Below, in pieces: positions 1 through 17,310 of a DNA stretch of 64,000 bases (positions are counted from its first letter, which is position 1; each line of letters opens with the position of its first letter). Source of the DNA: an uncultured Pseudomonadota bacterium (GTDB lineage: Bacteria > Vulcanimicrobiota > Vulcanimicrobiia > Eremiobacterales > Eremiobacteraceae). The stretch is taken from positions 32,001 through 96,000 of the forward strand of contig CAVTNB010000002.1 of assembly GCA_963736005.1 (NCBI GenBank), in the 5' to 3' direction. Made by a program: the position numbers and the translations under genes. Below the pieces are notes generated by a model, which worked only from the letters and a program-made list of their open reading frames with translations, made no database searches and was not told the DNA's origin.

Positions 1-249
1 GCTAAGGCAGCTCTTGACGATCGTCTTTGGCAGCGTCGTCGCGAGAAAGAAAGGCGCGATCTCCTGCAGATGTACGATGTGCACGTGCCCGCCACGGCGG
101 ATACGCGAGGCAAACCACAAGCAGCGGTCGGGGATCTGCACGTCAGCGCCTTGCGCGCGAAGCTCCTCCGCGAGCAGGTCCAGATAGGGATTGTAGGGCC
201 AGCGAAAGAGGAAGGCGCAGCGTAGCCATTGCCGCTGCGGATCAGACAT
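1..249 (-). CDS. Glycosyltransferase family 4, N-terminal part (runs off left edge)
   Basis: Manual translation from ATG at 249: MSDPQRQWLRCAFLFRWPYNPYLDLLAEELRAQGADV...HIVHLQ. The NPYxxLLxxxL pattern is typical of GT4 N-termini. The start overlaps the stop of the upstream gene. Confidence 0.65.
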   Translation of the reverse strand, partial: MSDPQRQWLRCAFLFRWPYNPYLDLLAEELRAQGADVQIPDRCLWFASRIRRGGHVHIVHLQEIAPFFLATTLPKTIVKSCLS

Positions 250-1208
250 ATTCACCCCCCTGCAACACCGAACCGCAAGCAACCACGGGGCGTGCTACCA
301 CCGCATCCTCGACCACCGAGTTGCGCTCGACATGAACGCCCTGCCAAAGAATCGACGATGAGATCGTGCTGCCCTCGTCGATGCGGCAGCCATCGCCTAT
401 GCAGGTCGGGCCGATCAGCCGCGCGCTGCTCGAAACCTGGGCAGCGCGGCCGGTAAGGACCCCGTCCACGACGTGTCGTCCTTCGCCGTAGCGCAGTTGT
501 ATGACGCCACGCAAGGCATCGAAGTGAAGGCGTCGATACGACTGTGGCAAGCCCAAGTCGCACCAATACACATCTTGGCGCATGCCGAAAAGGCGACCCT
601 TCGATGCCGCCATCGATGGAAACAGTTGCGTGCCGAAATCGTACACAATCCCATCGGGAATGCGTTCGAGCACGTGAGGTTCGAGGATATAGACACCCGT
701 GTTACCCCACGTGCTCTTCTCAGTTCCCTTCGCCGGTTTCTCTTGGAAGAGCTCGATGCGGCCGCGCGCATCCGTGACGGCGACGCCGCAACTGCTCGGA
801 TCGCTCGTCGGCGCGAGCACGATCGTCACCTCGGCACTTTTTGCCTTATGAAATTCGAGCGCCGCTGGGAGATCTGCCATCACGATGGTGTCGCAGGCCA
901 CGACCACGAAGGCCGCGTCAAAGTGCGATGCCGCTTTCTTCACGGCTCCTGCGCTACCACTTAACTTCTGCTCGCGTAGATACGCAAGGTGAACGCCGAA
1001 GCGAGATCCATCGCCTGCATACGCTACGATCGCATCGGCGAGGTAATGGACATTCATCGTGATGTCGCGGATAGCTTGGCGTCGAAAGCTGCTCGATGAC
1101 GTGCGCCATGACTGGCCGGTTAAGCAGCGGAACCAGCGGCTTCGGCAGGTTGCGAGTGAGCGGATACAATCGCGTGGACAGTCCGCCCGCCAGGATCATT
1201 GCTTGCAC
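242..1208 (-). CDS. Sugar-phosphate nucleotidyltransferase (mannose-1-P guanylyltransferase/HddC-like) with C-terminal beta-helix; one frameshift near 1075
   Basis: VQAMILAGGLSTRLYPLTRNLPKPLVP in one frame; FQEKP, NTGVYIL and WCDLG in ORF 242..1057. Confidence 0.88.
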
Positions 1209-1325: not shown

Positions 1326-1980
1326 GTGATAGTCCGCGATGACGACGCCGGTAGGGGCACTGCGCAGCTCGCCGTTATCGACGAGTATGTGTGCGCTGTG
1401 TCGCACGCGCTTGGGCAACTCTCGCGACAGCAGGTCTCCGACGTTGTGGATGCGCTCTTTGCGTGCTGGCAGCACGCCGGCTGCATTTACCTTGTGGCAA
1501 CGGCGGCAGTGCCGCCACAGCATCGCATATGATGAACGACTTGATTCGTGGCACGTGGCTGGAAGGAATGCGTTCCATTCGCGCGATTGCGCTGACCGAC
1601 AACGTTCCACTTATGACCGCTATCAGCAACGATACGCAATACGACCGCATCTTCTCCGACTTGCTCGAAGCGCTGCTGCAAACCGGACGACGTGGTCATT
1701 GCAATTTCGACTTCCGGCAACTCTCCCAACGTCGCTCCGGGCGGTGGCAGTCGCACAACGCCGCAAAGCGCGCGTGATTGCACTGTGCGGCAATAAGATC
1801 AGCCGCCTTTGGACGCAGGCCGATATCGCCGTGACCATTCCAGCCGACCTTGTGGGCCAACAAGAAGATGGGCACATGGTCGTCAACCATGCGGTCGCGC
1901 TCGCATTACGCCGGCGCATCGAACTGAGAGCGCGAGTAAGAGCGTCTGAGTGTTGCTTGCTTCCTAAGAGTATAGGGTAA
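1326..1980 (+). CDS. gmhA: Phosphoheptose isomerase (SIS domain), several frameshifts
   Basis: CGNGGSAATASHMMNDL, ALTDNVPLMTAISND, ISTSGNSPN (manual reading) and QQEDGHMVVNH are spread across three frames. Confidence 0.8.
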
Positions 1981-2744
1981 GACCGCCGTCCACGAAGACG
2001 GTTGATCCAGTCTGATAGCGCGCCGCATCCGAAGCGAGCCAAGCCACCAACGTGCCTATCTCTTCTGGTTGCGCCATCCGATGTAGTGGAATTTTTTCGA
2101 GAAGTTGGTCGCGCAACTTCGGTTTTTCCCAGAGGTTCTCGTTCATCGGTGGTTTGCACCACCCCGGGCGCGACCGCGAGGATCCGCACACCGTGCGGGG
2201 CCGCCTCAAGCGCGGCCGTTTTGGAAAGCATGGAGAGCCCGGCCTTGGCTGCGGCATATGCGCTGAAGCCTTTCCATGGCATCGTTTCATGGACTGACGT
2301 GACGTTGATGATCACGCCGCTGCGCCGCGCAATCATATCGGCGAGTGCTTGTTGCATGCAGTAGAATGCCCCGCACAAATTGACTTCCAGCACGCGCAAC
2401 CAGTCCGAGCGGTTAGCATCCCACACGAGGTTGGGAGGACCATCGATGCCAGCATTGTTGATCAGCACGTCCAGCCCCCCGTAACGGCTTCGGACCATCT
2501 GAAACATCCGCTCAACCGCATCCGCTTGCGAGACGTCCGCCGCAATCGAGAACGAATCCGAACCGAGGTCGCGACATCCTTGCACTACCGCCTCTGCTGC
2601 TTGCGCGTTCGTTACATAGTTCACGGCTACGTCAGCTCCGTTCGTGGCCAAACTCCGTGCGATCGCCGCTCCAATGCCGGTGTTGCCGCCAGTCACGAGC
2701 GCGCGGCGGCCTTTCAGACTGCTGCTGGTTGCATCGGGCGTCAC
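1964..2744 (-). CDS. SDR oxidoreductase (glucose 1-dehydrogenase-like), frameshift near 2150
   Basis: TGGNTGIG, NNAG and YAAAK motifs; C-terminus IPLHRMAQPEEI...TGSTVFVDGG in the alternate frame. Confidence 0.88.
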
Positions 2745-3649
2745 GGCGCTAGCCGGACCCGATGACGCAGCATGCTAAAGAACCCGCGCCAATACCAGAA
2801 TGTCCAAAAACGATGATAGGTGGCAAACTCGACTTGCTCAGACGTGGCAAGGCGCAATACGCGCGCTGCTCGCAAGAACGAAGGTGCGACTCCTCGGATG
2901 CCGAGGATCGCGGCTAGCGTACAGGACTTTCGGAAATCCCAGCGAGCGATGTCGGGATAGCGCAAGTACATGTCGGCTGCGCCCTGCCCGTACGTCCACG
3001 CCTGCCGAAGCAAGGCGCTGCGGTCGTTGCGATTTTTGTGAAACAGCACCGCATCGCGTGCATAGGCAATTTCACCTGGGTAGGCGCGTAACAAGCGAAG
3101 CGAAAAGTCAACGTCCTCTGCCGTGGGCATATCTTCCGCCCAGCCACCGATCGCGAGGGCGGCCCCTCGCCGCACCGCCATGTTGAGAGATGGCGCAAAC
3201 GGGAACGGCCTGCGTTCGATGGCGCGCTGGGAATAATTCAATCCCGCCGCGGCGCAGTAACGTTCCTCCGCTGTCTCTGGTTGAAAGACCAGCGTGTTAC
3301 CGACAGCAATCGTCACGTTGGCGTCGTCAAATACGCCGGCGAGGTGCGCGAGCCAGCGACGAGTCGGCAGAGTATCGGCGTCGAGGTACACGATGATGTC
3401 ACCGCGCGCATGCCCTAGGCCGCAATTCCGGGCCGCACCCGCCCCTGGCTTTTTCTCCTGCAAGAACGTCACAGGGAATGATCGGACGATGTCGGGCGTC
3501 TCATCGGTTGAATTGTTGTCAACGACGATGAACTCAAAGTCCCTGCCATCGATCCCGGTCTGGGCGAGCAAGCCGCCAAGTGTGTCAGCGATGGTCGCGG
3601 CACCGTTATAGACCGGCACCACGACACTAACGGAGCTCGCGCTTCTCAC
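2741..3649 (-). CDS. Glycosyltransferase family 2
   Basis: VSVVVPVYN, VVDNNSTD, ARNCG, YLDAD and EDVDF motifs. Probable GTG start overlaps the kinase TGA. Confidence 0.9.
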   Translation of the reverse strand: MRSASSVSVVVPVYNGAATIADTLGGLLAQTGIDGRDFEFIVVDNNSTDETPDIVRSFPVTFLQEKKPGAGAARNCGLGHARGDIIVYLDADTLPTRRWLAHLAGVFDDANVTIAVGNTLVFQPETAEERYCAAAGLNYSQRAIERRPFPFAPSLNMAVRRGAALAIGGWAEDMPTAEDVDFSLRLLRAYPGEIAYARDAVLFHKNRNDRSALLRQAWTYGQGAADMYLRYPDIARWDFRKSCTLAAILGIRGVAPSFLRAARVLRLATSEQVEFATYHRFWTFWYWRGFFSMLRHRVRLAP

Positions 3650-4628
3650 TGCAGGCAACGGTCGAGCGCCTCCAGGCATTCATCGTCGTGAAACGCGTTC
3701 TCCCCAATGGAAAATTCAATGCCTCGCACGTGTCCTGCGAGTTGCGCGACTGCTCGAAGAGAACGCGCAGCTTCGCTCCTCTCAGTGGGAACGACGGTTT
3801 GCTGCACGAGCGTGTGAAAAATCTCGTCCGGACCGAGGGGCCGCGAACTCGATAGCGCTTCGGTCCGAGTTTGCGCTGCAGGCGGACGACGTGCGTCGGA
3901 ACTCCATCGCGTTCCGTCCTGCCCGGCCAAATGTCGTGCAATGGACACCTTTCCGCTTTTCGGTCCACGCGGAATAGGCCGGCAACAACCAGAGGTCGCC
4001 AACTTCCGGGAACCACTGGCGCGTGCGCGGGTGCAGGTTCAATGAATGAAGCACGGCAGCAAGGCGGGGTCGACCATCCACGATGCGCAGCAACAGCTTG
4101 TCATCGCCCAGCGTGCGCCAGCCGGCTCGCATGAGGCCCGCGGTCAACGTGCTCTTTCCCCCTCCGCTCGGCGCGCACACGATGATGCAGCAGCCGCCAC
4201 GAGACAGAGCACCGGCATGCAGCGGAATCCAGTCAAGACAGCGCCAGCCTGTAGTGAGCACTAAGACGAGAAAGTCTTCCAGCTCTTCCAGATCGGCAAG
4301 TGAGGTCGGAACGTTCATGTGCCAGCGGTCGACGCTCGCACTCCGCACAAGCGTTAGATCCCCACCCGAACTCGAGGTTGCGATGAGTCCATCGGGGCTG
4401 CGGCAGACCGCCATGCGCGAGCACCGCAAGTACGAGCTGTCGACCATTGGGGTGCATTCGACGGTTTCGTGGACATGAGAGTTCGATGGAACGATGCGGC
4501 GGGTCCCAACGCACATCATACATGCCAAGTGTCGACGACAGCCGTTCCCGCAAGCGAGCGGATTCGCACTGAAGTCGTACATGTAATGGCCCGCAGAAGA
4601 ACTCGAGAACGGAGTGCGCAATGACCAT
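3646..4628 (-). CDS. HprK-related P-loop kinase, two frameshifts (about 4470 and 3950)
   Basis: LHAGAL...APSGGGKSTL...GWRTLGDD matches the HPr kinase-like His, Walker A and DD motifs. N- and C-termini lie in ORFs 4233..4628 and 3646..4002. Confidence 0.8.
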
Positions 4629-4646: not shown

Positions 4647-5042
4647 TTACTCCGCGAGTGGGATACTCGGGTCAAACGCGCTGATGATAACGCGCTGCAA
4701 CGGCTGCGGCTGCCGTTCGATGTGCGGCTTTTCCCACGGCCCCTCAAACTTCACAGCTGCGCCACGCCCTGTCACGTCGCGTCTTTCCAAGATAGCGTGA
4801 GTCGTGAGTTGACCGATAAACTCGTCGATAGGGGTATCGTCCTGCGAGCCCCATCGTCGGCACTGGTCCTTGACGTCTTGGAGCGCTGTGCCATCTTCCG
4901 CAAGTTGCAAAATCGCCCAGCCCGACGCGTTCACCCGATAAAAATACTTGGATCGAAGATCAAGCAGGACCGCCCCATGCCCGAGCACGGTCGCCACGAC
5001 GTCGGCGCTCATCCCTACATATTCTTTCAATTGCACAGACAT
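4647..5042 (-). CDS. PqqD-family / RiPP recognition element (RRE) protein with C-terminal extension
   Basis: GAVLLDLRSKYFYRVNASGWAILQLA...IDEFIGQLTTHAIL is the PqqD fold pattern, followed by about 45 extra residues. Confidence 0.85.
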   Translation of the reverse strand: MSVQLKEYVGMSADVVATVLGHGAVLLDLRSKYFYRVNASGWAILQLAEDGTALQDVKDQCRRWGSQDDTPIDEFIGQLTTHAILERRDVTGRGAAVKFEGPWEKPHIERQPQPLQRVIISAFDPSIPLAE

Positions 5043-5065
5043 TGTTACGAGCCCTTAAAGAGAAT

Positions 5066-5120
5066 GCGGCATCCGGATGCCGCTTCATGAGCCTGAGGAT
5101 TAGCCATTTGCATTGTACCA
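5066..5120 (-). promoter_or_regulatory. Extended -10 promoter (TGGTACAAT) and 18-bp perfect palindrome upstream of the PqqD gene
   Basis: TGGTACAAT on the minus strand at 5120-5112; GCGGCATCCGGATGCCGC at 5066-5083. Confidence 0.5.
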
Positions 5121-5253
5121 TTGGCCTTGCTGCTCAGGATACGACCTACGCCCTTCCTTGTGAGGCTTTCGGTCCCGCAGGGTGGCGGCGCGCCACGTAA
5201 GGACGCGGGCGATGAAGCCGACTGCACTGTGGAACGTGGCACGCATGAACCCT

Positions 5254-6738
5254 TCAGTTCCTGGGTGCAGCCAATGATCGGCTCGCGGGCGCTGTGCATA
5301 GCGCTCGGTCGTTTCCCGGCCAGCTTCGCTGCGAAAGCAAGTTTCGACCAGTCCCCGAACGACAGCGGATCGCCTCTGGCAGATCTTCTCGGCCTATCAA
5401 CCAGCTCACGTACCGCCGCACTGCTGGTGATTCGGGTTTTTGCATTCTACCGATGCGGGCTGCTAGAGCGAGGGCGCTCGACAAGCGCACGGGTTCCCAG
5501 GACTCCCGGGCACAGAATTCTTCCATTTCCTCAAGAAGTTCTGGCTGACTGCGCAACATCTGCGCAAGCAGGACCACATCCCGAAGTTTGTATACGCCTA
5601 TGGAATGTACGCACAGGTGCAGAGCCGATCCGAATGTATCGAGACAACCGGCTGTGCCCGCAGCTGTTGTTACGGAAGTGATGTGCGATTCAAGTGTGTG
5701 CCAATCCAATATCTGCGACAACCTTCGCGGTGGCGCGAGCGCGAAGTGCAGTTCGACGTTGAGGCCTTTGGTCGGTGGCACAAGCGGCGCGGCATGATGA
5801 TGATACGCAAGATACAGCGAGACATCTTGCTCGCACCCATATTGGTAACCGTGCCGGCGCAGCGCATCGGCACCGGCCGAAATCAAGTCAGCGGGAAGCA
5901 AGATGTCGATATCGGTGCTGGGGTGGAGCTCCATGCCTGGCAATCCAGCGAAAAGACGGGCCGAGCTTTTCAAAAGGGCGAAAGGTAGACCTTCGTTATT
6001 GAAAATGTGAACGATTTCTTCGATCTGCTTTCTGGTGCTGTCGCTCTCGTGCTCGATCCTGAGGGTTGAGGTCTCGAGGCCTCGAGCGAGCGGCTCGTAG
6101 TGGGAGAGATCGACCAACTTCCCGCAGCGCATGCCTTCTAACAAAATGCTCGTACAGCCGTGGCGCAACGCTATCCCGATGAGCGACGAGGCACTGCACG
6201 AGTCGATGGCTGCTCCTAGTGCTACCCAGTCGTCATTGACGATTGCGGTCATCGCATCCAAGAGAGCCTTGAAAGGGAACGACGCCGGATACACGCCTGC
6301 CAACTGCAATGCACCGTGACCCATACTCCGAAGCCGCACGGCAAGGGCCCGCAGCGAATGCGAACGCGCCGCAAGGGCGCTACGCGCGCTAAAATACTTG
6401 GCATTGAGCGGACGCGCAGTCGGTGAATCGTCGCTATAGACGGCGTCCAGCTCGCCAACTATTTGTCGCTCCTTTACGGCAGACACCGCAAGCGGATAAG
6501 CATCTCCGCAGACGATCCAACTCCCATTACGTTTCCCTATGATGCGACGGAGCACCACGTCCCCGCCAAGATCGAGCGCGACGATTGTGTTCTTTGCGGT
6601 GTGCGGATCAAAGGGGGCGAGCGACAGCACCATTGGCTCGCGCAGCAAGGGACACATCGCGCGCCCCCTCACAGCCACGCGCGGCCGCTGCTGCGCGATA
6701 GTCGCGAGCCGAAGCGCCGTGCTTTCGATACTCCCCAT
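5254..6738 (-). CDS. Nucleotidyltransferase family protein (NTP_transf_5-like) with N-terminal S24/S26 peptidase-like domain; may extend to about 5100 via a frameshift
   Basis: FALLKS...STDIDILL...VELHF in the C-terminal domain. N-terminal VRGRAMCPLL...VVLRRI...IVCGD...QIVGEL. ATG at 6738 overlaps the gmhB TGA. Confidence 0.8.
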   Translation of the reverse strand: MGSIESTALRLATIAQQRPRVAVRGRAMCPLLREPMVLSLAPFDPHTAKNTIVALDLGGDVVLRRIIGKRNGSWIVCGDAYPLAVSAVKERQIVGELDAVYSDDSPTARPLNAKYFSARSALAARSHSLRALAVRLRSMGHGALQLAGVYPASFPFKALLDAMTAIVNDDWVALGAAIDSCSASSLIGIALRHGCTSILLEGMRCGKLVDLSHYEPLARGLETSTLRIEHESDSTRKQIEEIVHIFNNEGLPFALLKSSARLFAGLPGMELHPSTDIDILLPADLISAGADALRRHGYQYGCEQDVSLYLAYHHHAAPLVPPTKGLNVELHFALAPPRRLSQILDWHTLESHITSVTTAAGTAGCLDTFGSALHLCVHSIGVYKLRDVVLLAQMLRSQPELLEEMEEFCARESWEPVRLSSALALAARIGRMQKPESPAVRRYVSWLIGREDLPEAIRCRSGTGRNLLSQRSWPGNDRALCTAPASRSLAAPRN

Positions 6739-7292
6739 CAAGGGTGCAGCGCGGTTGACACGCGCAGGTCTCCCACGATACCCAAAACGGCGGCGCTCAG
6801 ACTGTCGTCCAGTGCCGGATCGACAAAGTGTGCTTTGCAACCCGCGGCCCGTGCGGCCTCCATGTCTGAAAGCGAGTCCCCGAGGAGGTGACATTCAGCG
6901 AGGTCCAAACCAAAATCGCGTGCTGCTGCCTGCAACATCGCGGTCCCTGGTTTTCGACACGAACAAATAACTTCCGGTGCGTGTGGGCAGCAATACCACG
7001 CGGTGAGGTTGATGCCGTGGGAGCCAAGCGACCAGCGCATGCTCTCCATGATGCCCACCAAACCAGCTTCGTCAAGCATACCCTTCCCGACGCACGCCTG
7101 GTTGGATACAATGATGAGCGGAAAATGGGCAGCTTGCAGCAGCGATAATCCTGCGATGGCATCGCGTCGCCATCGGAACTGCTCCCAGCGCGTGACGTAC
7201 CCGCCTGGGATTTTTTCGTTGATCACGCCATCGCGATCGAGAAAGACGCACCGGTGAAGGACACACCGATCTGACGCTTGCCAACAAATCAT
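6738..7292 (-). CDS. gmhB: D,D-heptose 1,7-bisphosphate phosphatase (HAD IIIA)
   Basis: FLDRDGVIN, VSNQ, CPH...CSCRKP and GDSLSD motifs. Confidence 0.9.
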   Translation of the reverse strand: MICWQASDRCVLHRCVFLDRDGVINEKIPGGYVTRWEQFRWRRDAIAGLSLLQAAHFPLIIVSNQACVGKGMLDEAGLVGIMESMRWSLGSHGINLTAWYCCPHAPEVICSCRKPGTAMLQAAARDFGLDLAECHLLGDSLSDMEAARAAGCKAHFVDPALDDSLSAAVLGIVGDLRVSTALHP

Positions 7293-7445
7293 GAGCGACT
7301 GCTTCTCTAAATGCCACCCGAGTGTTGCTGCTTTCGACTTGGCGGCACGCTGCCGAACAGCCTTAGTACCTTGAGCGGCCGCACCAGGGCCTTGCGTCCC
7401 TATAGCATCACTTGCGCCGCTAGGGTAGGCAGTTTTGAGTGCACC

Positions 7446-8933
7446 TCAGGCGCGCTTTTTGTGCAATTGCGTGGCAACCACGATGAGCACTACCAGCACG
7501 ATCAGGAGCGTTATGTAAGCGTCTTCTCTCCTCAAGGGACGGCCAGGTTCGTCGACGGGCTGTTTCATAATCTCTGGCGCAGGCAATACGAAGTTGGTTG
7601 GGAGCAACATCGGCCGGATTGGCCGTTGCCGGAAATTGAATTCCTCGTACAAGTCCCCGAGTACTGGCTCTCGTTCGCGAACGCTCGGGCGTCGATCCGG
7701 ACGGCCATCCGTTTTTGGATCGAGCCGTTGCGAGCTCAGAAACACGTCTTCAATGAACTTAGCATATGCATCGAAACTGAGTACTTGGTGATCTATAAAG
7801 CCGCGTCTTGCATACGGACTAATGAGCAAGCCAGGAACGCGCGGGCCGTAACCATTGACATCGACGCGAGGTGGTGCAACGTGATCGTAAAAGCCTCCCC
7901 AATCATCCCACGTCAGAAAAATGGCGGTGCTATTCCATTGTGGCCCTTGCATTGCCGCGTTGATAAGGCTCGTGACATACGCTTGTCCATCCTTCACATC
8001 ATAAGGCGGATGTTCGCTGAAACGGCTGTTAGGACAAATCCAGGAAACTGCGGGCAAATGCCCGCTCTTTGCCGCCGCAAAGTAATCTGCAAGTCCGCGA
8101 ATACTTGCTAGCTCATGATCTTCTCTCACGGTTTCAAACCATGGCAAGGGATTCCAAATTGACGGCGTATCCGCTGATTGGGAAACGTGCGGCGTTGCCA
8201 TCGCATCGTCATCTTCTGTGTCGGGTGCGAAGCCGCCAAACACATAGTAAGCCCAGCTCACATGGTTCTTATGAAGCAGAAACGTCAAATCCGTCCACGA
8301 GTACGTCGGCGACGGGTTGTCGCTATTCACGTCGACCGCGTTGCTGCAGGACATGGGATCAGCAGAACCACACTTGGCCGACCACTCAGAGACGAGGAAC
8401 AGGTGCGCCGGTAAGCTCCAGCTTGCGATCGATTCGAACATGTGATCTTGCAGCACAAAATACTTGGCATATGCCCAATAATTGGGAATCTCTCGGCCGT
8501 CGTGATAGCCCATCACATCTTTCCCCGAGCCGCCACACGCCGGATCTAAGATTCTGCGGCAGCGCTTCAACCTGCGTTGGGCCTGCGCAATAAATCCATC
8601 CATCTTGCCGCCGTCGATGTCGGCCAAGGCTGCGTCATGCCCATGGGGACCGCCGTAATTCACAACGCTTGCGTCGTGGAAGGGTGGAGTGCACCCTGTA
8701 TTTTTTGGATCAGGTACACATTGCACGGGCTTGCCGTCTCGAAAGCGGATTCCGTCCGCTCCAGGATACGTTCCGAAATAGCTATCAAACGAACGGTTCT
8801 CTTGGACAATAATAATGATATGTTCTATCCTGCCTGTCGCGCTGTGCACCCCCGCGCCTTGGGCGGCAGAGCTCTCAACGGACCCACATGCAAAGAGTAG
8901 GGTCCCCACGAGAAGAGGTGCGACATATTTCAT
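7446..8933 (-). CDS. Secreted phosphoesterase (phospholipase C/acid phosphatase family) with C-terminal membrane anchor
   Basis: [35 protein letters not shown] and GPRVP motifs; N-terminal signal with LFAC. Confidence 0.9.
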
Positions 8934-8941
8934 TCGGCCCC

Positions 8942-9904
8942 TCAACGGTGCTGCTGCGCTAGGAGCGCCTGCGCCGCGGTTGTATCTGGCAGGACGCCAG
9001 TTGAGTAGATGGAGTCCAAACCAAAAAGCGCCACGAGATCGAAGGCCCGTTGCAGATCAGCTCCGCTAACTTCGTCTTTCCACGCACTCACTAAATTTGC
9101 TCCGGTTCGGATGGCGGAAGTCCGGCGCGTTGTGGATGACGGTTTGGCATACGCCATCTGGACGTTGTCACTCATCGGTTGACCAATGAACTCGAAGAGA
9201 CGGGCCATTTCTGCCTGCGGGTGGAGGAGCAGATTTTCATAGAACATGAGGTGCGTGTTGTTTGGCGTGAGCTCGCGCAGCGGCACGTAGTTCTGAATGC
9301 ACCAATTGAGAACGTGCTGGTCCCATTCCGGGCCCGATCGCGCAGCCACCATGCGGTCATAGAATGGTGCAAGCTGATCTTCGATGAGCTCTCGCTGCAG
9401 GAAGTATTCCTGAAAAACGTTCGGCAGTCGCCGTTGGATGGTCGAGTAGGCGACAGCGGCGGGGTGCCGCATGACAAAGATGATTGGTACTTCGGGATGC
9501 CGGTCGCGCAGCCAATGCAACCATAGGTTTGCCCGACATTCCTTGATCAGGCGCTTGTGAAAGACCAGGCGATTATACGGCTGCACCGAGCGATTGTACT
9601 CGTTCGAGCGAATCCAATTCCAAACGCGATGCCCACGCAGCGTGCGCTCAACGGGAACGACGTAGCGCTCTTCGCTGTTTCCTTTACGCAGATACAGCAC
9701 CGGTCGTAAGGCCGGCCATACCGCCGGGCCAAAAGGTTCATGGTAATAGCGGTAACTATGGTCGTGGTTGACCAATTGCGCTAGCCACGTGGTGCCTGAG
9801 CGGCCGCTGCCCGCGATGAACACTGCGTGCTGCGCGCCCAACCGTCGCTCGAATACTGGCAACCAGCCCCAACCTGGGCGGCGTTTCGTCCGTTTCACGC
9901 TCAA
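8942..9904 (-). CDS. Sulfotransferase family protein
   Basis: [12 protein letters not shown] (PAPS-binding loop), [13 protein letters not shown] and FYENL motifs. Confidence 0.85.
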
Positions 9905-10022: not shown

Positions 10023-11186
10023 ATGCGCGTAGCTTATCTGACCCGGTTTGACGTTACGGATCGTGCCAGCGTGCCCGCGTTGGGCGGCGCGGGCTATGCC
10101 AGCTATTACATCGCCCAAACGCTAGAAACCATGGGTGTGTCCCTGACGCGTGTGAACGGTCTGCCATCAAGCCTCTCGCTCGCTACCCGGCTTACGTCCG
10201 CGTTTTACCGCCGTGTCTATCACCAAAACTACAACATCGCAGCCAACCCAACAATCATCAAACGCCAAGCGAAGTACGTAGCGCAAAAGCTGGCTGCGGC
10301 CGACTACGACATTATTCTGACGCGAATACTCTTACCACTTGCACACCTCCACGTGGACAAACCAGTTGTCGTGTGGACAGACGGAAGCGCGCGCGGCCTG
10401 TTCGATTTTTATCCGCAGCTTACAAACCTATCCGAGCGCAGCAAGCGTGAGACCCTTGCTATGGAATTGGCTGCCCTCGAACACTGCAGCCTCATCATTT
10501 ATAGCTCTGAATGGGCGGCAAGCCACGCGCCAGATCGCATCGACCGAAGAAAAATCAAAATTGTTCCTTTCGGCGCCAACTGCGAATGTGACCGCACGGT
10601 AAGTGATATTCAAGCCATCGCTGAGATGAAACCTATGCGACCGTACAGGTTGCTCTTCGTGGGCGGCGCATGGAATCGCAAAGGTGGTCTGATTGCGTGC
10701 CAGGTGGCGAAGGCTCTCTCTGACGTTGGGTACTCCACAACCCTCACCGTGATCGGCCGCAAGCCGGACATCCCGAAGGAGTTTGGAGGGGTTGTTAACC
10801 TTGTGGGCTTCCTCGACCAATCTCGCGCACAGGGGCAACAGCGGTGGAGTGAGCTCATGCGTGAGTCGCATTTTTTGATTCTGCCGAGCAGAGCGGACTG
10901 TTCTCCGCACGTGCTGGCGGAAGCCAACTCCTTTGGACTGCCCTGCTTGACGACGAACGTCGGCGGAATCCCCGGGATCATCCGTGATGGGGTCAATGGC
11001 AAGCTCTTCCGTCTTGAAGCCGATCCTCGGGATTACCGCGACTTTGTCGTGAGTCAGCTCGAGGACCCACAACGGTACCGGCGCCTCATGCTGGCTTCCT
11101 TTCAAGAATTCCAAACTCGCTTGAATTGGCGCGTCGCGTGCCAGCGAGTTGGGGCGTTGCTCGAAGGTTTGATGACTACGATGTAG
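10023..11186 (+). CDS. Glycosyltransferase family 4
   Basis: LLFVG...RKGG and ILPSRADCSPHVLAEANSFGLP..TTNVGGIP motifs. Confidence 0.9.
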   Translation: MRVAYLTRFDVTDRASVPALGGAGYASYYIAQTLETMGVSLTRVNGLPSSLSLATRLTSAFYRRVYHQNYNIAANPTIIKRQAKYVAQKLAAADYDIILTRILLPLAHLHVDKPVVVWTDGSARGLFDFYPQLTNLSERSKRETLAMELAALEHCSLIIYSSEWAASHAPDRIDRRKIKIVPFGANCECDRTVSDIQAIAEMKPMRPYRLLFVGGAWNRKGGLIACQVAKALSDVGYSTTLTVIGRKPDIPKEFGGVVNLVGFLDQSRAQGQQRWSELMRESHFLILPSRADCSPHVLAEANSFGLPCLTTNVGGIPGIIRDGVNGKLFRLEADPRDYRDFVVSQLEDPQRYRRLMLASFQEFQTRLNWRVACQRVGALLEGLMTTM

Positions 11187-11667
11187 CTTCGAGAGGTGTC
11201 AGCGGCACTTCTTTGATGCGGACATTGAAGATCTCGTCCGGCGCGTCGAAGTGTTGTCCCCCAACGGATATCCAGGCGTGCCCGCGCAATCGTTCGTGGG
11301 GGTTGGGTTGCTCTTCAATGCCAAAATGGATCTTCACCGGCTGATCGCCGGCGTCAAGAAAACGGTAGAGGGTCAGGGCACGGACGTAGCAGTTATCTCG
11401 CGAACGTAAAAACGGTAAGCGCAAATTCAGGGCACGCAAACGCGCGATGCGTTCTTGACTCTGCTCGATGCTGGGCGCTGCCGGCCGACGGCACTCTCGC
11501 AGATCCGCGAGAAAAGACCGGAGGTTTCGTCGCCTCAACAGAGCGGGCACACGCCACATGAAGTAGCCGATCTGCAAGGCGAGCCAAAGGTCGTCGGGTC
11601 GACGGACGAATGCGCGGTAGCGCTGCGCAAAACCACGTGGCGTCCACTTGGGCGCGAGCTTGTTCAC
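11176..11667 (-). CDS. Lasso peptide biosynthesis B2-like protein (transglutaminase-like cysteine peptidase)
   Basis: NCYVRALTLY...VKIHFGI...GHAWISVGG...D gives a Cys/His/Asp triad pattern. GTG start overlaps the GT2 stop (GTGA). Confidence 0.85.
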   Translation of the reverse strand: MNKLAPKWTPRGFAQRYRAFVRRPDDLWLALQIGYFMWRVPALLRRRNLRSFLADLRECRRPAAPSIEQSQERIARLRALNLRLPFLRSRDNCYVRALTLYRFLDAGDQPVKIHFGIEEQPNPHERLRGHAWISVGGQHFDAPDEIFNVRIKEVPLTPLEATS

Positions 11668-12551
11668 CACCGCGCACGCTCTCTTCGATCGAGCTGAGTT
11701 GCGACGAAGCCAACCCGCTGGGCAAGTTTCTTCACAAACATGCCGCGTGCATACAAGAACCGCTCGTTGTTGGGAACGCGCCATGCGGACAAACTCAGGC
11801 GGCCGATATCCGCCCACTCTTTGAGCTCATCGCCGATGGTCCATCGACATTCGTCGCGATGGTGCAAGACAAATTGTGCGTAGCCTTTGCCGTACGAATA
11901 TTGCTGCCGCCAGAAACCCTTCCAATCTGCGCGATGCCGATGAAACACGACAGCCCGCGAAGCATACACGAACTCGCCCGGCTGCGCTTTCAGAATGCGG
12001 TTGTGCAAGTCGCAGGCCTCGTACGATGTATATCGTTCGTCAAACCCGCCTGCGTCTTCCAAAACGCTTTTCCGATACATGAGGTTGCTCGACGGCGCAA
12101 AAGGAAACTTTGGATGAGAGAGATGACGTTGCGCGTCCAAGCTCCCGATGAGATCGCAAAAGTGTGCAGCATCAGTCGTTGAATCGAGGCCGAGCGTACG
12201 ACCGCCGGCGCCGATACACTGCGCGGTCGAGGTGGACGACTGCGCGACGGCGGCGAGGAGTGAACGCAGCCACGATCGGGAAGGCACGCAATCGGCATCC
12301 GTAAACGCGATCCACTTACCTCGTGCCACAGCGACGCCAGCGTTGCGCGCAGCTCCTGCTCCCTTGTTTTGCTGGCCGAGGACGCGGACATCAAAGGATT
12401 GCGCCAGTGTTTGTGTGCCATCACGCGACCCGTCATCGACCACGATGATCTCGTACAAGTCTTCGCAGTCTTGGTTGCACAGTGCATTGAGGCACTCGGC
12501 CAAAGTCTTTTCGGCATTGAATGCGGGAACAACGACGCTTGCCAGTGTCAC
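11664..12551 (-). CDS. Glycosyltransferase family 2
   Basis: ASVVVPAFN, VVDDGSRD, ARNAG, FTDADC and GGFDE motifs. Confidence 0.9.
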   Translation of the reverse strand: MTLASVVVPAFNAEKTLAECLNALCNQDCEDLYEIIVVDDGSRDGTQTLAQSFDVRVLGQQNKGAGAARNAGVAVARGKWIAFTDADCVPSRSWLRSLLAAVAQSSTSTAQCIGAGGRTLGLDSTTDAAHFCDLIGSLDAQRHLSHPKFPFAPSSNLMYRKSVLEDAGGFDERYTSYEACDLHNRILKAQPGEFVYASRAVVFHRHRADWKGFWRQQYSYGKGYAQFVLHHRDECRWTIGDELKEWADIGRLSLSAWRVPNNERFLYARGMFVKKLAQRVGFVATQLDRRERARW

Positions 12552-12622
12552 CGCGTTAGTATAGCCAATAGGACGTTTTGCCCGCGTGAAGCACGTGGCC
12601 CAAAGCGGGGGTCTTGGAAGTC

Positions 12623-13165
12623 CTAATCCGGGGGTTCGTCGGCAGCTCCGGTCGCGAGGTACGTTACGATGTCCCACGCATTGCGAATTCCGATGAAGAT
12701 CAATAACACGATACCGCCGGCGATAGCGAAGAGCGCTTTCGTTGGAACCGCGGGAAGGGTAATCGCACCTCCGAAGATCGCAAAGTAAGCGATAAATGGA
12801 AGGATATTATACCACGTCCAATCTTCGAGGTCGGGAATATACACGGTGAGACGCTTGGTTTGGTACATCACGCGCAGAATATACACAATGCCGAAGAGAC
12901 CGGCAAACCCGATGAAGACGGCGGCGTGAAACAGCAAGTGCCAAGGTGCGTTGAGCACCGCCGAGATTAATAATGCCGCGCTGAAGTGCATGACCGTCGG
13001 CGTGCTGAACGTCGCCATCCCGTCCGGGTTTTTTCGCACGCGTTCCGTTCGGTTCACTAGCGTGATCACGACGAACATTAATCCCGTCAGGGCTGCGGCC
13101 GACGAGCCGGTCATGACGTAGAAATTCGACCACGGGGTGAGAAACGATGATGCGGTCTCAGCCAT
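12623..13165 (-). CDS. Conserved integral membrane protein of unknown function
   Basis: About five hydrophobic segments; WSNFYVMTGSSAAALTGLMFVVI and GIRNAWD patterns. Confidence 0.75.
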   Translation of the reverse strand: MAETASSFLTPWSNFYVMTGSSAAALTGLMFVVITLVNRTERVRKNPDGMATFSTPTVMHFSAALLISAVLNAPWHLLFHAAVFIGFAGLFGIVYILRVMYQTKRLTVYIPDLEDWTWYNILPFIAYFAIFGGAITLPAVPTKALFAIAGGIVLLIFIGIRNAWDIVTYLATGAADEPPD

Positions 13166-14540: not shown

Positions 14541-14888
14541 ATGCCAACCGATTTTCGCGACGGTCGCACGTTCCCGCGTCGCGGTCGCCATCCGTTAGGG
14601 AGTTTCTTGTGGCTAGCCCGGGTTTTCGATAAGGCTCGAGCCTCCAAGGCGGGCACCATCTACGATTATATCTATCCGTGCCCCATGGACCTTGGCATGT
14701 TCGAACGGTGGGGGATCACCGTCGAGGAATTTGAGGGAGCCATGAGCGAGCATGGCGACGATCAAGCACTGCGCCAATGGGCTCAATCACGCATCGCTCA
14801 GCAAGCTTGCGACGCCGCAAACTCGTGGTTGGTCACGGAAAAGTTCGAAAATCTCGACCGCCAAGATCGCGAGGAGAACGTTTTCTGA
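14541..14888 (+). CDS. DUF5069-like small protein
   Basis: PR...LG..WLARVFDKARA..AGTI.DYIYPCPMD pattern. Confidence 0.7.
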   Translation: MPTDFRDGRTFPRRGRHPLGSFLWLARVFDKARASKAGTIYDYIYPCPMDLGMFERWGITVEEFEGAMSEHGDDQALRQWAQSRIAQQACDAANSWLVTEKFENLDRQDREENVF

Positions 14889-17310
14889 GACGATCGGCGA
14901 GAACGCTGGCTTGAACCGAGATCCCGTCGGAGATGACGGATACCCCACCGTCGAGATCTGTCCGATAGACTTGCGCCCCGGCAGTCTTAAGAGCAGCTAA
15001 TGTGAGCGGGCTTGGGTGTCCGAAGACGTTGTGCAAGCCGCATGAGATGATCGCGATTTTCGGATGCACGGCCGCCAGAAATTCTGGTGTCGACGAATAA
15101 GCACTTCCGTGATGACCGACTTTGAGGATGTCGGCACGCAGATCCGCGCCACCGTGCGAAAGCAGACGAGCTTCAGCCTCTGATTGCGCGTCACCGGTGA
15201 GCAGCATCGCAACCTGTCCGAAGGTCACTCGAAGCACGACCGAATTATTGTTGATATCCGACGATGTTCCAGTAATCAACGGCAACTCGGGTGCGAGTAC
15301 CTGAACGTGCGTAACTGTGCCGAGATCGAACGCCTCGCCCCGTTGCGCTCGGATCCACTTGATGTGACGGTCGTGTATGACTTCAAGTGTGCGATGATAT
15401 GCTGGACCCGAATAGAGTTGCGCTGAGTCGTACACCCTATCAACGCGCTCACGCGAGAGGATGACGGGGAGACCACCAACGTGGTCGCCATGTGGGTGCG
15501 TCAGCACGACTGCATCAAGATGCAACACCCAATGCCTCAAGAGAAATGGCATGACCGTCCGCGTCGCGAGGCGATCGCCGATGGGAGCGGCCACCACAAA
15601 ACCGGTGCTCGTGCGCTCGAGGCGACCTCCACTATCGACAAGCATCGCGTGACCTCCCGGAGCACGCACGAGCAGGCAGTCGGCTTGACCGACGTCGATG
15701 GCGTCAAGCCGCACGCGCTGATCGAGTCTTTGCGCGATTCCAGGAATGCAGTATATAAGGAAGAGCGCGAATGCGACTGCTACGCCCCACTTGGCTATGA
15801 GCCTCCGCGGAATTTGGTATTTGAACGCCGCGGCGAGCGCTCCGAGTGCCATCCAGTACGCAATCAGGAATGCGTGAGTCGGCGGCGGCACATCGATGTG
15901 GCTACCAGGCAGCGTCGCGAAAAATCGGACCGCGTCGATCACAAAGAGCAACCCCCACCACACGAGGTTGCTCAATGGAAGAGCAAGGGGCGGACAGGCG
16001 AGCGAGGCGGCACACAAGCTCGCTCCAACCGCCATGATGAGCGCGATGAGCGGAACGACAACGGCATTTGCCAGCACCGCGTAGGGCGTGAATGCGTTAA
16101 AGTAAAGCGCTTGAAACGGCCACAACGCGATCTGCACCGCCAGGCTCGTTCGCACGACCTCGACAACGACGCGCGGAAGTCTTCCATCCTCTCGTAATCC
16201 AAGCGAGCTCAACACTGGACTCACGAGCGCGATGCCGACGACGCACGCAAACGACATCGAGAACGACGGCGACAGAAGCGCGAGTGGGTGAGGCAACGCG
16301 ACCGCGCTCGCCGCCGCTGCAAAGATCGCGCTCGGCGTCCTCCCCCGGCCAAGTTCGAGGGCGACCGTTCCTGCGGTGAGCATGGTTGCCGCGCGCAGCG
16401 TTGGCAGATGCAGGCCTGCGAGCGCCGCATACAACCATGCGCCAACGAGCATGAATCCGATACGAGCGGCTCGAGCGATCGGAAAACGCGAGAGAATCCA
16501 AGCGAGCAACCCAGCCATGATTCCAAGATGCAGACCCGCCGTGGTCAGCACGTGGACGGTGCCCGTGTCCGAGAATTCCTGACGCAAGGCGGCCGGCAAA
16601 TTACCTCGGTCGCCCCACAGAATGCCTTCGAGCACCGTTGCCTCGAGAGGCGGGAGCCGGCTCTCAATCGCATCTGCGCCTGCCAGCCGTATCCGCGCCC
16701 ACCATGCTTCCCACCCCGTGCCGATGCCAAGCCTGCGTATATCCTTGGCACGGTGGGCGGCAATCACGACGTCGACGCCCTGTTCGCTCAGCAGGTCTCG
16801 CTCGGCTGGTTCACCTTCGTTTCGCGCGCCGCCGGGCAGATCGAGACGCCCCCGAATCGTCACGCGTTGTCCAGCCACTTGGCCAACGTCAGCCGCCGGA
16901 AATGTCACGAGAGCAACAGTCCCGACAAGATGGATGGCGGCCTCGCTCGCAGGCGAGCTCACGTGAAGGACACGTACTCGAAGCGAACCCGAGTCGGTAT
17001 ATCTTGGACGCTCGAGAGCAAGCGCTTCGATCACAACGTGATGGCCGTCAAGCGCCGCGTAAGGCCTATGCTCCACCCGCCATACCGCGAGCGTTGCAGC
17101 ACCGGCTCCAATGCCAAACGCGAGGATCAATGGGATGAGAAACCTTTTGATGCTTGTTTCCGTTAGAAAAACAAAGGCGACGGCCGCAGCAAGTGCTGCC
17201 GCTGCAAATCCCGCTGATACGCTCGCAGCTGCAACCACACCAAGGCCGTACAACGACACAAGCAACGCAAAACTGTGACCGCGCCACAGCGAGTCGAACG
17301 ATGCGCGCAC
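14833..17310 (-). CDS. comEC: DNA internalization competence protein ComEC/Rec2
   Basis: GTVHVLTTAGLH competence domain; DVGQAD, THPHGDH, NNNSVV and KVGHHGS in the MBL domain. Confidence 0.93.
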   Translation of the reverse strand: MRASFDSLWRGHSFALLVSLYGLGVVAAASVSAGFAAAALAAAVAFVFLTETSIKRFLIPLILAFGIGAGAATLAVWRVEHRPYAALDGHHVVIEALALERPRYTDSGSLRVRVLHVSSPASEAAIHLVGTVALVTFPAADVGQVAGQRVTIRGRLDLPGGARNEGEPAERDLLSEQGVDVVIAAHRAKDIRRLGIGTGWEAWWARIRLAGADAIESRLPPLEATVLEGILWGDRGNLPAALRQEFSDTGTVHVLTTAGLHLGIMAGLLAWILSRFPIARAARIGFMLVGAWLYAALAGLHLPTLRAATMLTAGTVALELGRGRTPSAIFAAAASAVALPHPLALLSPSFSMSFACVVGIALVSPVLSSLGLREDGRLPRVVVEVVRTSLAVQIALWPFQALYFNAFTPYAVLANAVVVPLIALIMAVGASLCAASLACPPLALPLSNLVWWGLLFVIDAVRFFATLPGSHIDVPPPTHAFLIAYWMALGALAAAFKYQIPRRLIAKWGVAVAFALFLIYCIPGIAQRLDQRVRLDAIDVGQADCLLVRAPGGHAMLVDSGGRLERTSTGFVVAAPIGDRLATRTVMPFLLRHWVLHLDAVVLTHPHGDHVGGLPVILSRERVDRVYDSAQLYSGPAYHRTLEVIHDRHIKWIRAQRGEAFDLGTVTHVQVLAPELPLITGTSSDINNNSVVLRVTFGQVAMLLTGDAQSEAEARLLSHGGADLRADILKVGHHGSAYSSTPEFLAAVHPKIAIISCGLHNVFGHPSPLTLAALKTAGAQVYRTDLDGGVSVISDGISVQASVLADRLRKRSPRDLGGRDFRTFP

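Follow-up and report, generated by a model that had tools for sequence, protein, structure and literature searches.

In a 64,000-nucleotide stretch of contig CAVTNB010000002.1 (hereafter the window), from an uncultured bacterium of the Eremiobacteraceae, we notice a minus-strand gene for a 131-residue protein that joins a RiPP (ribosomally made, post-translationally modified peptide) recognition element (RRE) to a C-terminal tail. The last 18 residues of this RRE-tail protein are its best-conserved segment in 135 homologues. We read the protein as a natural fusion of an RRE and a precursor, in which the tail is presented in cis to an HprK-like kinase and probably also to a lasso-type B2 leader peptidase and sugar-adding enzymes, and we give this reading a somewhat better than even chance. 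The RRE-tail protein is thus probably its own modification substrate. RiPP genome mining presumes a separate short precursor gene beside the RRE, and clusters without such a gene are shelved as orphans. If the fusion is real, a class of 'precursor-less' clusters of RRE, kinase and nucleotidyltransferase becomes interpretable.

Organization of the RRE-tail gene

The gene and its parts are as follows. Segment conservation is given as mean top-residue fraction and entropy in the 135-sequence alignment, and confidence is the predicted local distance difference test (pLDDT) of the AlphaFold2 (AF2) model.

4647..5042, minus strand: RRE-tail gene, 131 aa (PqqD/lasso B1-type RRE plus C-terminal tail); stop codon at 4647-4649
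4779..5009, minus strand: RRE fold, residues ~12-88, strands followed by three helices; AF2 pLDDT 92-97, Foldseek and profile matches; over residues 12-88, top-residue fraction 0.61, entropy 1.70 bits
4737..4778, minus strand: variable linker, residues 89-102 (DVTGRGAAVKFEGP); top-residue fraction 0.29, entropy 3.10 bits, n=135
4704..4736, minus strand: leader-like recognition stretch, residues 103-113 (WEKPHIERQPQ), predicted from conservation and AF2 to dock on its own RRE; top-residue fraction 0.62, entropy 1.62 bits
4650..4703, minus strand: core-like end, residues 114-131 (PLQRVIISAFDPSIPLAE), the extreme C-terminus; top-residue fraction 0.86, entropy 0.68 bits; floppy in AF2

Translation of the minus-strand open reading frame (ORF) ends in ...ERRDVTGRGAAVKFEGPWEKPHIERQPQPLQRVIISAFDPSIPLAE-stop. 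The tail behind the RRE fold reads exactly as quoted in a preliminary description of this DNA, whose range of 4647-4775 comprises the stop codon and V90-E131, beginning one codon past D89. Within the core-like end, S121 is a candidate phospho-acceptor, and V118-I119/I120, with the cut between the two isoleucines, is a candidate B2 cleavage region.

Family models reach the RRE below their cut-offs. Pfam PqqD (PF05402) matches residues 24-60 with E 8.7e-4 and 20.0 bits, under its cut-off of 23.4, and lasso_PqqD_Strm, the only NCBIfam model that matches the protein, gives E 8.1e-6 and 26 bits (cut-off 70). Among the matches listed, about half of the homologues carry a precomputed PF05402 match, and a search of the ESM Atlas returned 'PqqD family protein' clusters only. 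The profile of the 135 homologues matches TbiB1 (E 1.9e-11, profile positions 9-93), TfuB1 (E 3.7e-8, positions 5-87) and the PbaB1 entry 9x90_B (E 2.3e-4, positions 20-89), and all three matches stop short of the tail. The top Foldseek match of the AF2 model is leader-bound TbiB1, 5v1v (TM 0.81 on target, root-mean-square deviation 1.4, 82 columns). By fold and by profile, the protein therefore has the B1-type RRE of lasso clusters, and the N-terminal RRE fold named in the preliminary description is borne out.

Conservation of the C-terminal tail

A word-indexed search found 285 homologues at E <=1e-3 (289 candidates). Among the matches listed, they are 107-160 aa long, and nearly all extend to residue 131. 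An exhaustive search of 50%-identity representatives gave 47 clusters, so the family is small but distinct. The tail outranks the linker in conservation, a comparison that the preliminary description had put forward as its check (top-residue fraction 0.86 vs 0.29), and residues 1-11 stand at 0.26 and 3.17 bits. The columns L26, P114, L115, D124, P125, P128 and E131 are invariant in the 135-sequence alignment.

Genome loci were collected by scanning one genome per species, which gave 52 loci, and a metagenome scan seeded with distant members gave another 51. In a set of 51 tails (50 loci plus the window), W103 is present throughout, P106 in 47, and one of the residues I, V, L and M at position 108 in 49. 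All 51 tails keep P114, A122, F123, D124, P125, P128 and E131. At position 118, V occurs in 29 tails, I in another 17 and L in the remaining 5; at position 121, S occurs in 50. The invariant residues are written with 2-4 codons each (4 each for A122, P125 and P128), the near-invariant L115 with 6 and L129 with 8, and E131 is GAG in 27 tails and GAA in 24. Such synonymous codon turnover at invariant residues points to selection on the protein in that frame. Directly before the stop codon, [FV]DPxxPxxE occurs in 50/52 genome loci and 50/51 metagenome loci (100/103 in total).

Discrete RREs are usually at most 110 aa long according to an RRE survey (PMC12710340), and the Pfam match ends at residue 60, so one may ask whether an ordinary discrete RRE has here been lengthened, by read-through or by gene calling, with a tail that has no meaning. 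We regard this as refuted: the tail is the best-conserved part of 135 homologues from many phyla, its codons turn over synonymously, and its stop position is fixed.

No split forms of the gene were found among the 30-71 aa proteins searched. Five short or tail-less representatives were checked, namely P0165 (33 aa), P0141 (56 aa), P0161 (60 aa), P0147 (70 aa) and the tail-less P0134 (112 aa); the check left out P0152, P0159 and P0160. The four with a recorded contig come from contigs of 947-3125 bp, one of the five is labelled partial, and P0141 and P0147 cluster with members of 134 and 135 aa. Given the short contigs and the clustering with full-length members, we reject them as split genes and take them as fragments. 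Longer relatives are extended only N-terminally, and a search for fused forms found one such protein of 267 aa. A motif scan for free precursors was dropped, as the bare [YW]xxPx[LVIAFY] motif is too frequent (203/6099 small ORFs of related loci).

Predicted docking of the leader-like stretch

The AF2 model built from the 135-row alignment has a mean pLDDT of 87.2 and a predicted TM-score of 0.79. The RRE blocks reach 92-97 and the block 101-110 reaches 96, with a strand at residues 108-110. Past the docked stretch the confidence drops to 70 at residues 111-120 and 58 at 121-130. The model thus puts W103-E109 on the RRE at pLDDT ~96 and leaves the conserved end free. A second model, of a member ~27% identical to the window protein and with a 13-row alignment, likewise has an extra strand (residues 112-115), and its end is floppy too. 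Since the fold matches B1 structures with a bound leader, we infer that the docked strand lies in the leader groove. Docking of the leader in cis, as an extra strand on the RRE, had been predicted in the preliminary description, and the models reproduce it.

The tail in the kinase complex model

All 23 kinase orthologues compared keep H137, a Walker A motif (C-A-x-S-G-G-G-K-S-T) and G-D-D-K. Their counterparts in BsfK, H148, G163-S170 and D186-D187, matter by mutagenesis (PMC10368454). In B2, C143 and H180 are invariant (43/43), and residue 191 is acidic. Judged by these residues, the kinase and B2 both look active.

We predicted the complex of the two proteins with orthologues from L004, a near-identical relative of the window locus whose RRE-tail protein is 95% identical, because the window kinase reads in three frames. 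The complex of RRE-tail protein and kinase scores 0.82, and the best of 3 controls scores 0.00. It passes a mark reached by 116/157 solved complexes and 2/215 mismatched pairs, a calibration that is only rough here, as the complex used 23-row alignments. Three runs share at least 96% of contacts, with partner pLDDT of at least 83. The kinase profile has no relatives in the Protein Data Bank at E <=0.01, which makes it improbable that the score merely reproduces a complex already solved.

In the model, the two proteins meet at two places. At one, the RRE sheet (residues 13-36) lies on kinase helices 265-297. The other is formed by tail residues 111, 113, 115, 117-126 and 128-129, which touch kinase residues 67-74, 117-126, 135, 137, 176-177 and 221, including the catalytic His and Asp.

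A tail that docks in cis with high predicted confidence and also sits in the kinase cleft of the model may act as an autoinhibitory pseudo-substrate, filling the RRE groove and the kinase cleft until a free precursor or a signal displaces it. The Ser is dispensable in some lineages, which would suit this idea. We consider it very unlikely. No competing precursor is conserved in or next to the 52 genome loci, and the short proteins that resemble one are fragments from contig ends, grouping with members of full length. Autoinhibition also leaves unexplained why B2 and the glycosyltransferases co-occur with the protein and why residues beyond the cleft are so extremely conserved.

A cassette shared across phyla

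By the labels of their metagenome-assembled genomes (MAGs), the 52 genome loci belong to Eremiobacterota/Vulcanimicrobiota, Chloroflexota, Alphaproteobacteria (Defluviicoccus), Desulfobacterota-type bacteria, Acidimicrobiia, other Actinomycetes, Gemmatimonadales, Binatia, Phycisphaeraceae, Chromatiales and Terriglobia. The usual order is compact and co-directional: RRE-tail gene, kinase, two genes of glycosyltransferase family 2 (GT2), B2, and sometimes an NTP_transf_5 nucleotidyltransferase. Gene content was counted in the 41 genome loci whose tail has the motif and which offer 3 kb or more of downstream sequence. Of these, 40 have the kinase, 41 have GT2 (with matches to both window GT2s), 39 have B2 and 18 have NTP_transf_5. 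Where the kinase start could be assigned (28 loci), it lies -34 to +19 nt from the RRE-tail stop in 25, and the three remaining starts are at -43, +153 and +446 nt.

Clustering of 8362 ORFs from the 52 loci revealed no conserved coding-strand small ORF and no conserved upstream gene; the clustering merged overlapping-frame ORFs in GC-rich loci and is usable only for upstream absence and downstream families. The preliminary description had invoked the fusion to explain a missing free precursor, and no conserved one was found with the cassette. An Asn-synthase-like cyclase was not found in the 103 loci by tblastn with the PF00733 proteins on C4 and C2 of the window's own genome; these queries had no trial against known lasso cyclases and may overlook a divergent enzyme. 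PF00733 matches in that genome are only at C4:11226, on another contig, at C2:180498, at least 84 kb from the window, and weakly on C1.

The same genome holds a second compact cassette at C3:20052-24000 (locus L109, ~5089-8907). Its RRE-tail protein is 50% identical and ends in ...SAFDPSVPLVE, and it is accompanied by a one-frame kinase, one GT2, B2 and NTP_transf_5. The relative that holds L004 likewise has two copies (L004 and L043). The protein is present in 27/401 searched genomes of the window's phylum and in 14/247 of high quality (including one unpublished, G344), so the cassette is patchy and accessory.

In two loci, cassette enzymes appear to share one ORF: B2 and NTP_transf_5 in a 596-aa ORF of L018 (10871-12661), and B2 and the second GT2 in a 502-aa ORF of L020 (10242-11750). 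These B2 fusions suggest that the cassette enzymes work together.

Register of the tail and proposed course of modification

With W103 as position 1, P106 falls at position 4, I108 at 6, V118 at 16 and S121 at 19. Position 16 corresponds to T-1 in the precursor of linear polyphosphorylated peptides (LPP) and to Thr/Ile(-2) of lasso precursors, and position 19 to the LPP phospho-Ser. The LPP precursor LppA has Y-16 and P-13, its leader is cut after T-1 and its S3 is (poly)phosphorylated (PMC13381572). The lasso precursor BsfA has Y-17, P-14, L-12 and Ile(-2), with phospho-Ser3, and its RRE, BsfB1, accelerates the kinase and aids B2; Ile/Val(-2) is recurrent in phosphorylated lasso precursors (PMC10368454). 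The register match is the strongest argument from the literature for reading the tail as leader plus core.

We propose that the 131-aa protein is a self-contained RiPP-type substrate, made of a recognition domain of the lasso B1 type, its own leader and its own core. Through the variable linker, W103-x-x-P106-x-I108 would be able to turn back and add a strand at the RRE groove, and the most conserved stretch, P114-L115...S121-A-F-D-P-S-I-P-L-A-E131, would hang free at the protein end. In the complex model, the C-terminal helices of the HprK-like kinase grip the RRE sheet, and its catalytic cleft receives residues 117-126. There the kinase would phosphorylate S121, which stands in the register of the LPP phospho-Ser3.

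B2 may cut near V118-I119/I120, an Ile/Val(-2)-type site as in BsfA, freeing a peptide of ~12 residues; gene context, the intact catalytic triad and the register of V118 are the basis for this step. NTP_transf_5 and the two GT2s might add sugars, in the way that the pseudomycoidin nucleotidyltransferase places a hexose on phospho-Ser. With no cyclase, the product would be linear. That the core-like end hardly varies between phyla suggests a conserved function in the cell and not an antibiotic.

Exceptions, distant members and the role of the tail

Several observations weigh against the fusion reading and the steps proposed for it. V, I or L at position 118 would fit an Ile/Val(-2) site by register alone, and the I(-2)V and I(-2)L variants of BsfA are hardly cleaved (PMC10368454), so this specificity is not simply transferable to position 118. 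A Ser is not found in every tail at these places, as L054 shows with N121 and T126 and L049 with G126. The genome locus L008 has neither kinase nor B2, and in the window itself the cassette is rearranged, with B2 and one GT2 ~6 kb from the RRE gene. A phospho-Ser model leaves the invariant D124, P125, P128 and terminal E131 unexplained. The structural support is throughout the models' own confidence, and the complex was predicted for the L004 orthologues, not for the window's own proteins.

Distant members add to these points. Of the metagenome loci that extend 3 kb or more downstream, tblastn with the window proteins, which is insensitive at such distance, detected the kinase in 8/14, B2 in 5/14 and GT2 in 14/14; NTP_transf_5 was found in 1/14 in this way, yet Pfam detects it in L059 and L062. 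In the FDPQLPLAE subfamily, whose tails end in ...K-H-D-E-P-L-H-E-V-x-x-x-P-F-D-P-Q-L-P-L-A-E, a kinase is found in 3/16 loci with at least 700 nt downstream. These 3 kinase-bearing loci have no Ser/Thr in the last 15 residues, and 7/13 kinase-less loci do have one. The kinase of L059, the sole subfamily kinase examined, keeps H, G-S-G-K-T and D-D. Two long loci, L059 (8001-15914) and L062 (8001-15878), contain four consecutive GT2 genes, NTP_transf_5 and a D-2-hydroxyacid dehydrogenase. Directly after the RRE-tail gene stands the kinase in L059 and a GFO/IDH/MocA oxidoreductase in L062, and B2 was not found in either locus.

Universal features are the RRE, the docked x-x-x-P-x-[LIV], P-L, the terminal F-D-P-x-x-P-[LI]-[AP]-E and the GT2 enzymes. 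The subfamily exceptions mean that phosphorylation of S121 and cleavage by B2 are not a universal logic, and they may hold for the window's subfamily. The preliminary description had taken the Ser-containing end as the kinase substrate. This stands in so far as the model places residues 117-126 in the cleft, and it does not extend to the kinase-bearing FDPQLPLAE loci, which lack Ser/Thr there.

The main rival explanation, which we hold to be unlikely, is that the protein is an adaptor or scaffold: an RRE permanently 'loaded' with a built-in pseudo-leader, whose C-terminal arm recruits or activates the kinase, the GT2s and B2. The enzymes would act on a leaderless peptide from elsewhere, on a sugar, or on a lipid-linked glycan made by the polysaccharide genes nearby. 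Engineered leader-enzyme fusions are the counterpart of such an arrangement. The GT2s are the sole universal partners (41/41 and 14/14 loci), the tail stays invariant where kinase and B2 are lost, and the kinase-bearing FDPQLPLAE members offer no Ser/Thr to phosphorylate, all of which an adaptor would explain. The universal D, P, P and terminal E resemble a docking motif more than an acceptor, and the window neighbours are sugar-nucleotide and polysaccharide-type genes. The LPP nucleotidyltransferase was inactive on the peptide in a heterologous host (PMC13381572), which also fits. However, the tail follows the leader motif in the register of real precursors, and the model puts residues 117-126 in the catalytic cleft rather than on a peripheral surface. 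An active-looking B2 needs a leader-bearing substrate, and no other is conserved in the cassette. Moreover, a docking arm need not be the exact C-terminus, as the tail is in 100/103 loci.

A further possibility, to which we likewise give a low chance, keeps the self-presenting substrate and takes the C-terminal P-L...F-D-P-x-x-P-L-A-E-COOH as a glycan primer or carrier, with B2, where present, releasing the peptide as a conserved glycopeptide product. The glycan, phosphate-linked or otherwise attached, would be built by NTP_transf_5 and two to four GT2s. Given its invariance between phyla, the product would be a cofactor-, signal- or envelope-type glycopeptide, comparable to pyrroloquinoline quinone (PQQ) or mycofactocin, and not an antibiotic. 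The terminal Glu and the invariant Asp would take part in chemistry new to these enzyme families.

The near-invariant 18-residue end, found in Eremiobacterota-type bacteria, Chloroflexota, Proteobacteria, Actinomycetota and others, points to an unrecognised conserved glyco- or phospho-peptide. In addition, the transfer of a substrate from an RRE to a kinase and a peptidase could be studied with the fusion in a simple system of two proteins.

Gene neighbourhood in the window

The genes around the RRE-tail gene are listed below.

242..1057, minus strand: sugar-1-phosphate nucleotidyltransferase (mannose-1-P guanylyltransferase-like); PF00483 E 3.3e-27, NF052502 E 1.2e-44, under cut-off
1623-2744, minus strand: short-chain dehydrogenase/reductase (SDR); ORF ~120 aa longer than its domain
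2741..3679, minus strand: GT2 glycosyltransferase, first of the cassette pair; PF00535 E 9.9e-32
3649..4628, minus strand: HprK-related kinase, in three frames in the window, start 19 nt past the RRE-tail stop; TIGR04352 E 6.8e-12
5254..6894, minus strand: NTP_transf_5 nucleotidyltransferase, 546-aa ORF, domain at residues 244-452; PF14907 E 2.3e-16
6738-7292, minus strand: GmhB-like haloacid dehalogenase (HAD) family (heptose-bisphosphate) phosphatase
7446-8945, minus strand: PF04185 phosphoesterase
8942..9904, minus strand: sulfotransferase; PF13469 and PF00685
10023-11186, plus strand: glycosyltransferase family 4 (GT4)
11176..11817, minus strand: lasso-type B2 leader peptidase (transglutaminase-like Cys protease); NF033537 42.4 bits, cut-off 33
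11664..12677, minus strand: GT2 glycosyltransferase, second of the pair, adjoining B2; PF00535 E 1e-35
14833-17310, minus strand: ComEC/Rec2-type competence protein (Competence, Lactamase_B, DUF4131), just past the cluster

The match of the kinase to TIGR04352 has 45.1 bits (cut-off 200) and covers residues 171-225 only. A related kinase aligns by tblastn in three frames to the window and in one frame to the 94%-identical L004 orthologue. Over 12.6 kb, the window differs from the 93%-identical L004 locus by 23 indels. Of the 23, 20 involve one base only, and in 17 it is the window that has the insertion. The kinase contains 5 of them and the SDR 4, and the RRE-tail gene is free of them. This pattern is likely a long-read sequencing error, with a real pseudogene of the kinase as a possible alternative. 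The fusion working with the adjacent enzymes, as first proposed, is partly supported: the computational checks named with it came out in its favour, and it is qualified by the subfamily without Ser, by the kinase in three frames and by B2 lying 6 kb away.

The GmhB-like phosphatase, the PF04185 phosphoesterase, the sulfotransferase and the gene at 242-1057 occur only in the window, in L004 and partly in L005, whose contig of 2.9 kb sets the extent of the comparison. In the locus table, the sulfotransferase is restricted to the window and L004. These four genes are local additions and not core; the guanylyltransferase-like gene is a possible donor supply, as a local accessory.

An 84-aa ORF at 5045-5299 (minus strand), between NTP_transf_5 and the RRE gene, was considered as a free precursor and rejected, as it has no family match and no conserved counterpart. 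The 210 nt between NTP_transf_5 and the RRE-tail gene contain a GC-rich hairpin of 7 pairs followed by a T-rich run (5066-5083, minus strand), which ends up 24 nt upstream of the start codon. A promoter and terminator scan found 0 promoter-like sites and, with this hairpin, 1 terminator-like site vs 1.6 expected by shuffling, which is not significant on its own.

Comparison with known systems

The B2 leader peptidase of lasso clusters is present here together with the B1-type RRE. The lasso cyclase was not found in the 103 loci as searched by tblastn, and the 52 genome loci contain no conserved small ORF that could be a free lasso precursor, in which Thr(-2) and Gly/Ala/Ser/Cys1 would be joined by an acceptor Asp/Glu at 7-9. 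A cut after register position 17 would make Asp124 tail residue 5. The cassette is not a lasso cluster, since it lacks both a cyclase and a core of the lasso type, in line with the earlier argument against a lasso product.

The LPP family (Popov et al. [quoted passage not shown] This gene set is found here as well, with NTP_transf_5 in 18/41 loci and a frame-broken kinase in the window. LPP clusters and the window cassette alike sit among polysaccharide genes, and both have a [Y/W]xxPx[V/I] leader motif with the modified Ser, or here the candidate, 18 residues past the aromatic residue (W103 to S121). The LPP precursor motif is YxxPxVLxHQxIxFETxxS, whereas here W comes first in 51/51 tails and the invariant end follows. 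LppA is a separate protein of 35-200 aa that varies at its C-terminus; here the RRE protein itself contains leader and core, and that core is near-invariant. The LPP core genes include a SipW-like signal peptidase, LppS, and an MsbA-like exporter, in place of which we find the lasso B2 and two GT2s. No SipW-like peptidase or MsbA-like exporter is among the Pfam matches of 16 neighbouring window ORFs or of the ORFs scanned in L018, L020, L006, L059 and L062, and no search dedicated to these families was made. LPP is found in Bacillota, and the present cassette in Eremiobacterota-type bacteria, Chloroflexota, Proteobacteria, Actinomycetota and other MAGs. Without a separate precursor, and without SipW-like or MsbA-like genes among the scanned neighbours, this is not an LPP cluster as defined.

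The Bradymonas bsf cluster (PMC10368454) shares the B1 RRE, B2, the HprK-like kinase, an N gene and the kinase motifs H...GxxGxGKS...DD. There, B1 speeds phosphorylation of the Ser just past the cleavage site, and an aliphatic residue replaces Thr at -2. In contrast, bsf encodes a cyclase, and its precursor, which has Gly1 and Asp8, is free; the present cassette has no cyclase, no Gly1/acceptor spacing and a fused precursor; the candidate Ser is at register position 19 here and at 20 in BsfA. In the paeninodin and pseudomycoidin clusters (PMC8498205), the kinase phosphorylates a precursor Ser and an NTP_transf_5-type enzyme adds a hexose to the phosphate. The nucleotidyltransferase of lasso clusters is sometimes fused to B2, as the L018 ORF suggests here, and a sulfotransferase occurs in some clusters of this type (PMC8498205). 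Those systems modify the C-terminal Ser, whereas here the C-terminal Glu is invariant and the candidate Ser lies 10 residues from the end.

The closest known systems are the LPP family and the phosphorylated lasso clusters (paeninodin, pseudomycoidin and bsf types), with which the cassette has tools in common: B1, kinase, NTP_transf_5, B2 and a sulfotransferase. In borosins, the core is fused to the methyltransferase itself, and engineered leader-enzyme fusions place recognition and substrate in one polypeptide. The likeness to these is one of analogy only, with no homology, and the fusion here is to a non-catalytic RRE. Full-text literature searches (paper supplements aside) found no natural RRE-precursor fusion, and none appears in the accessible parts of two RRE surveys (PMC12710340, PMC7470986). 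The present cassette stands apart in that its RRE is fused to leader and core and that two GT2s belong to its core genes.

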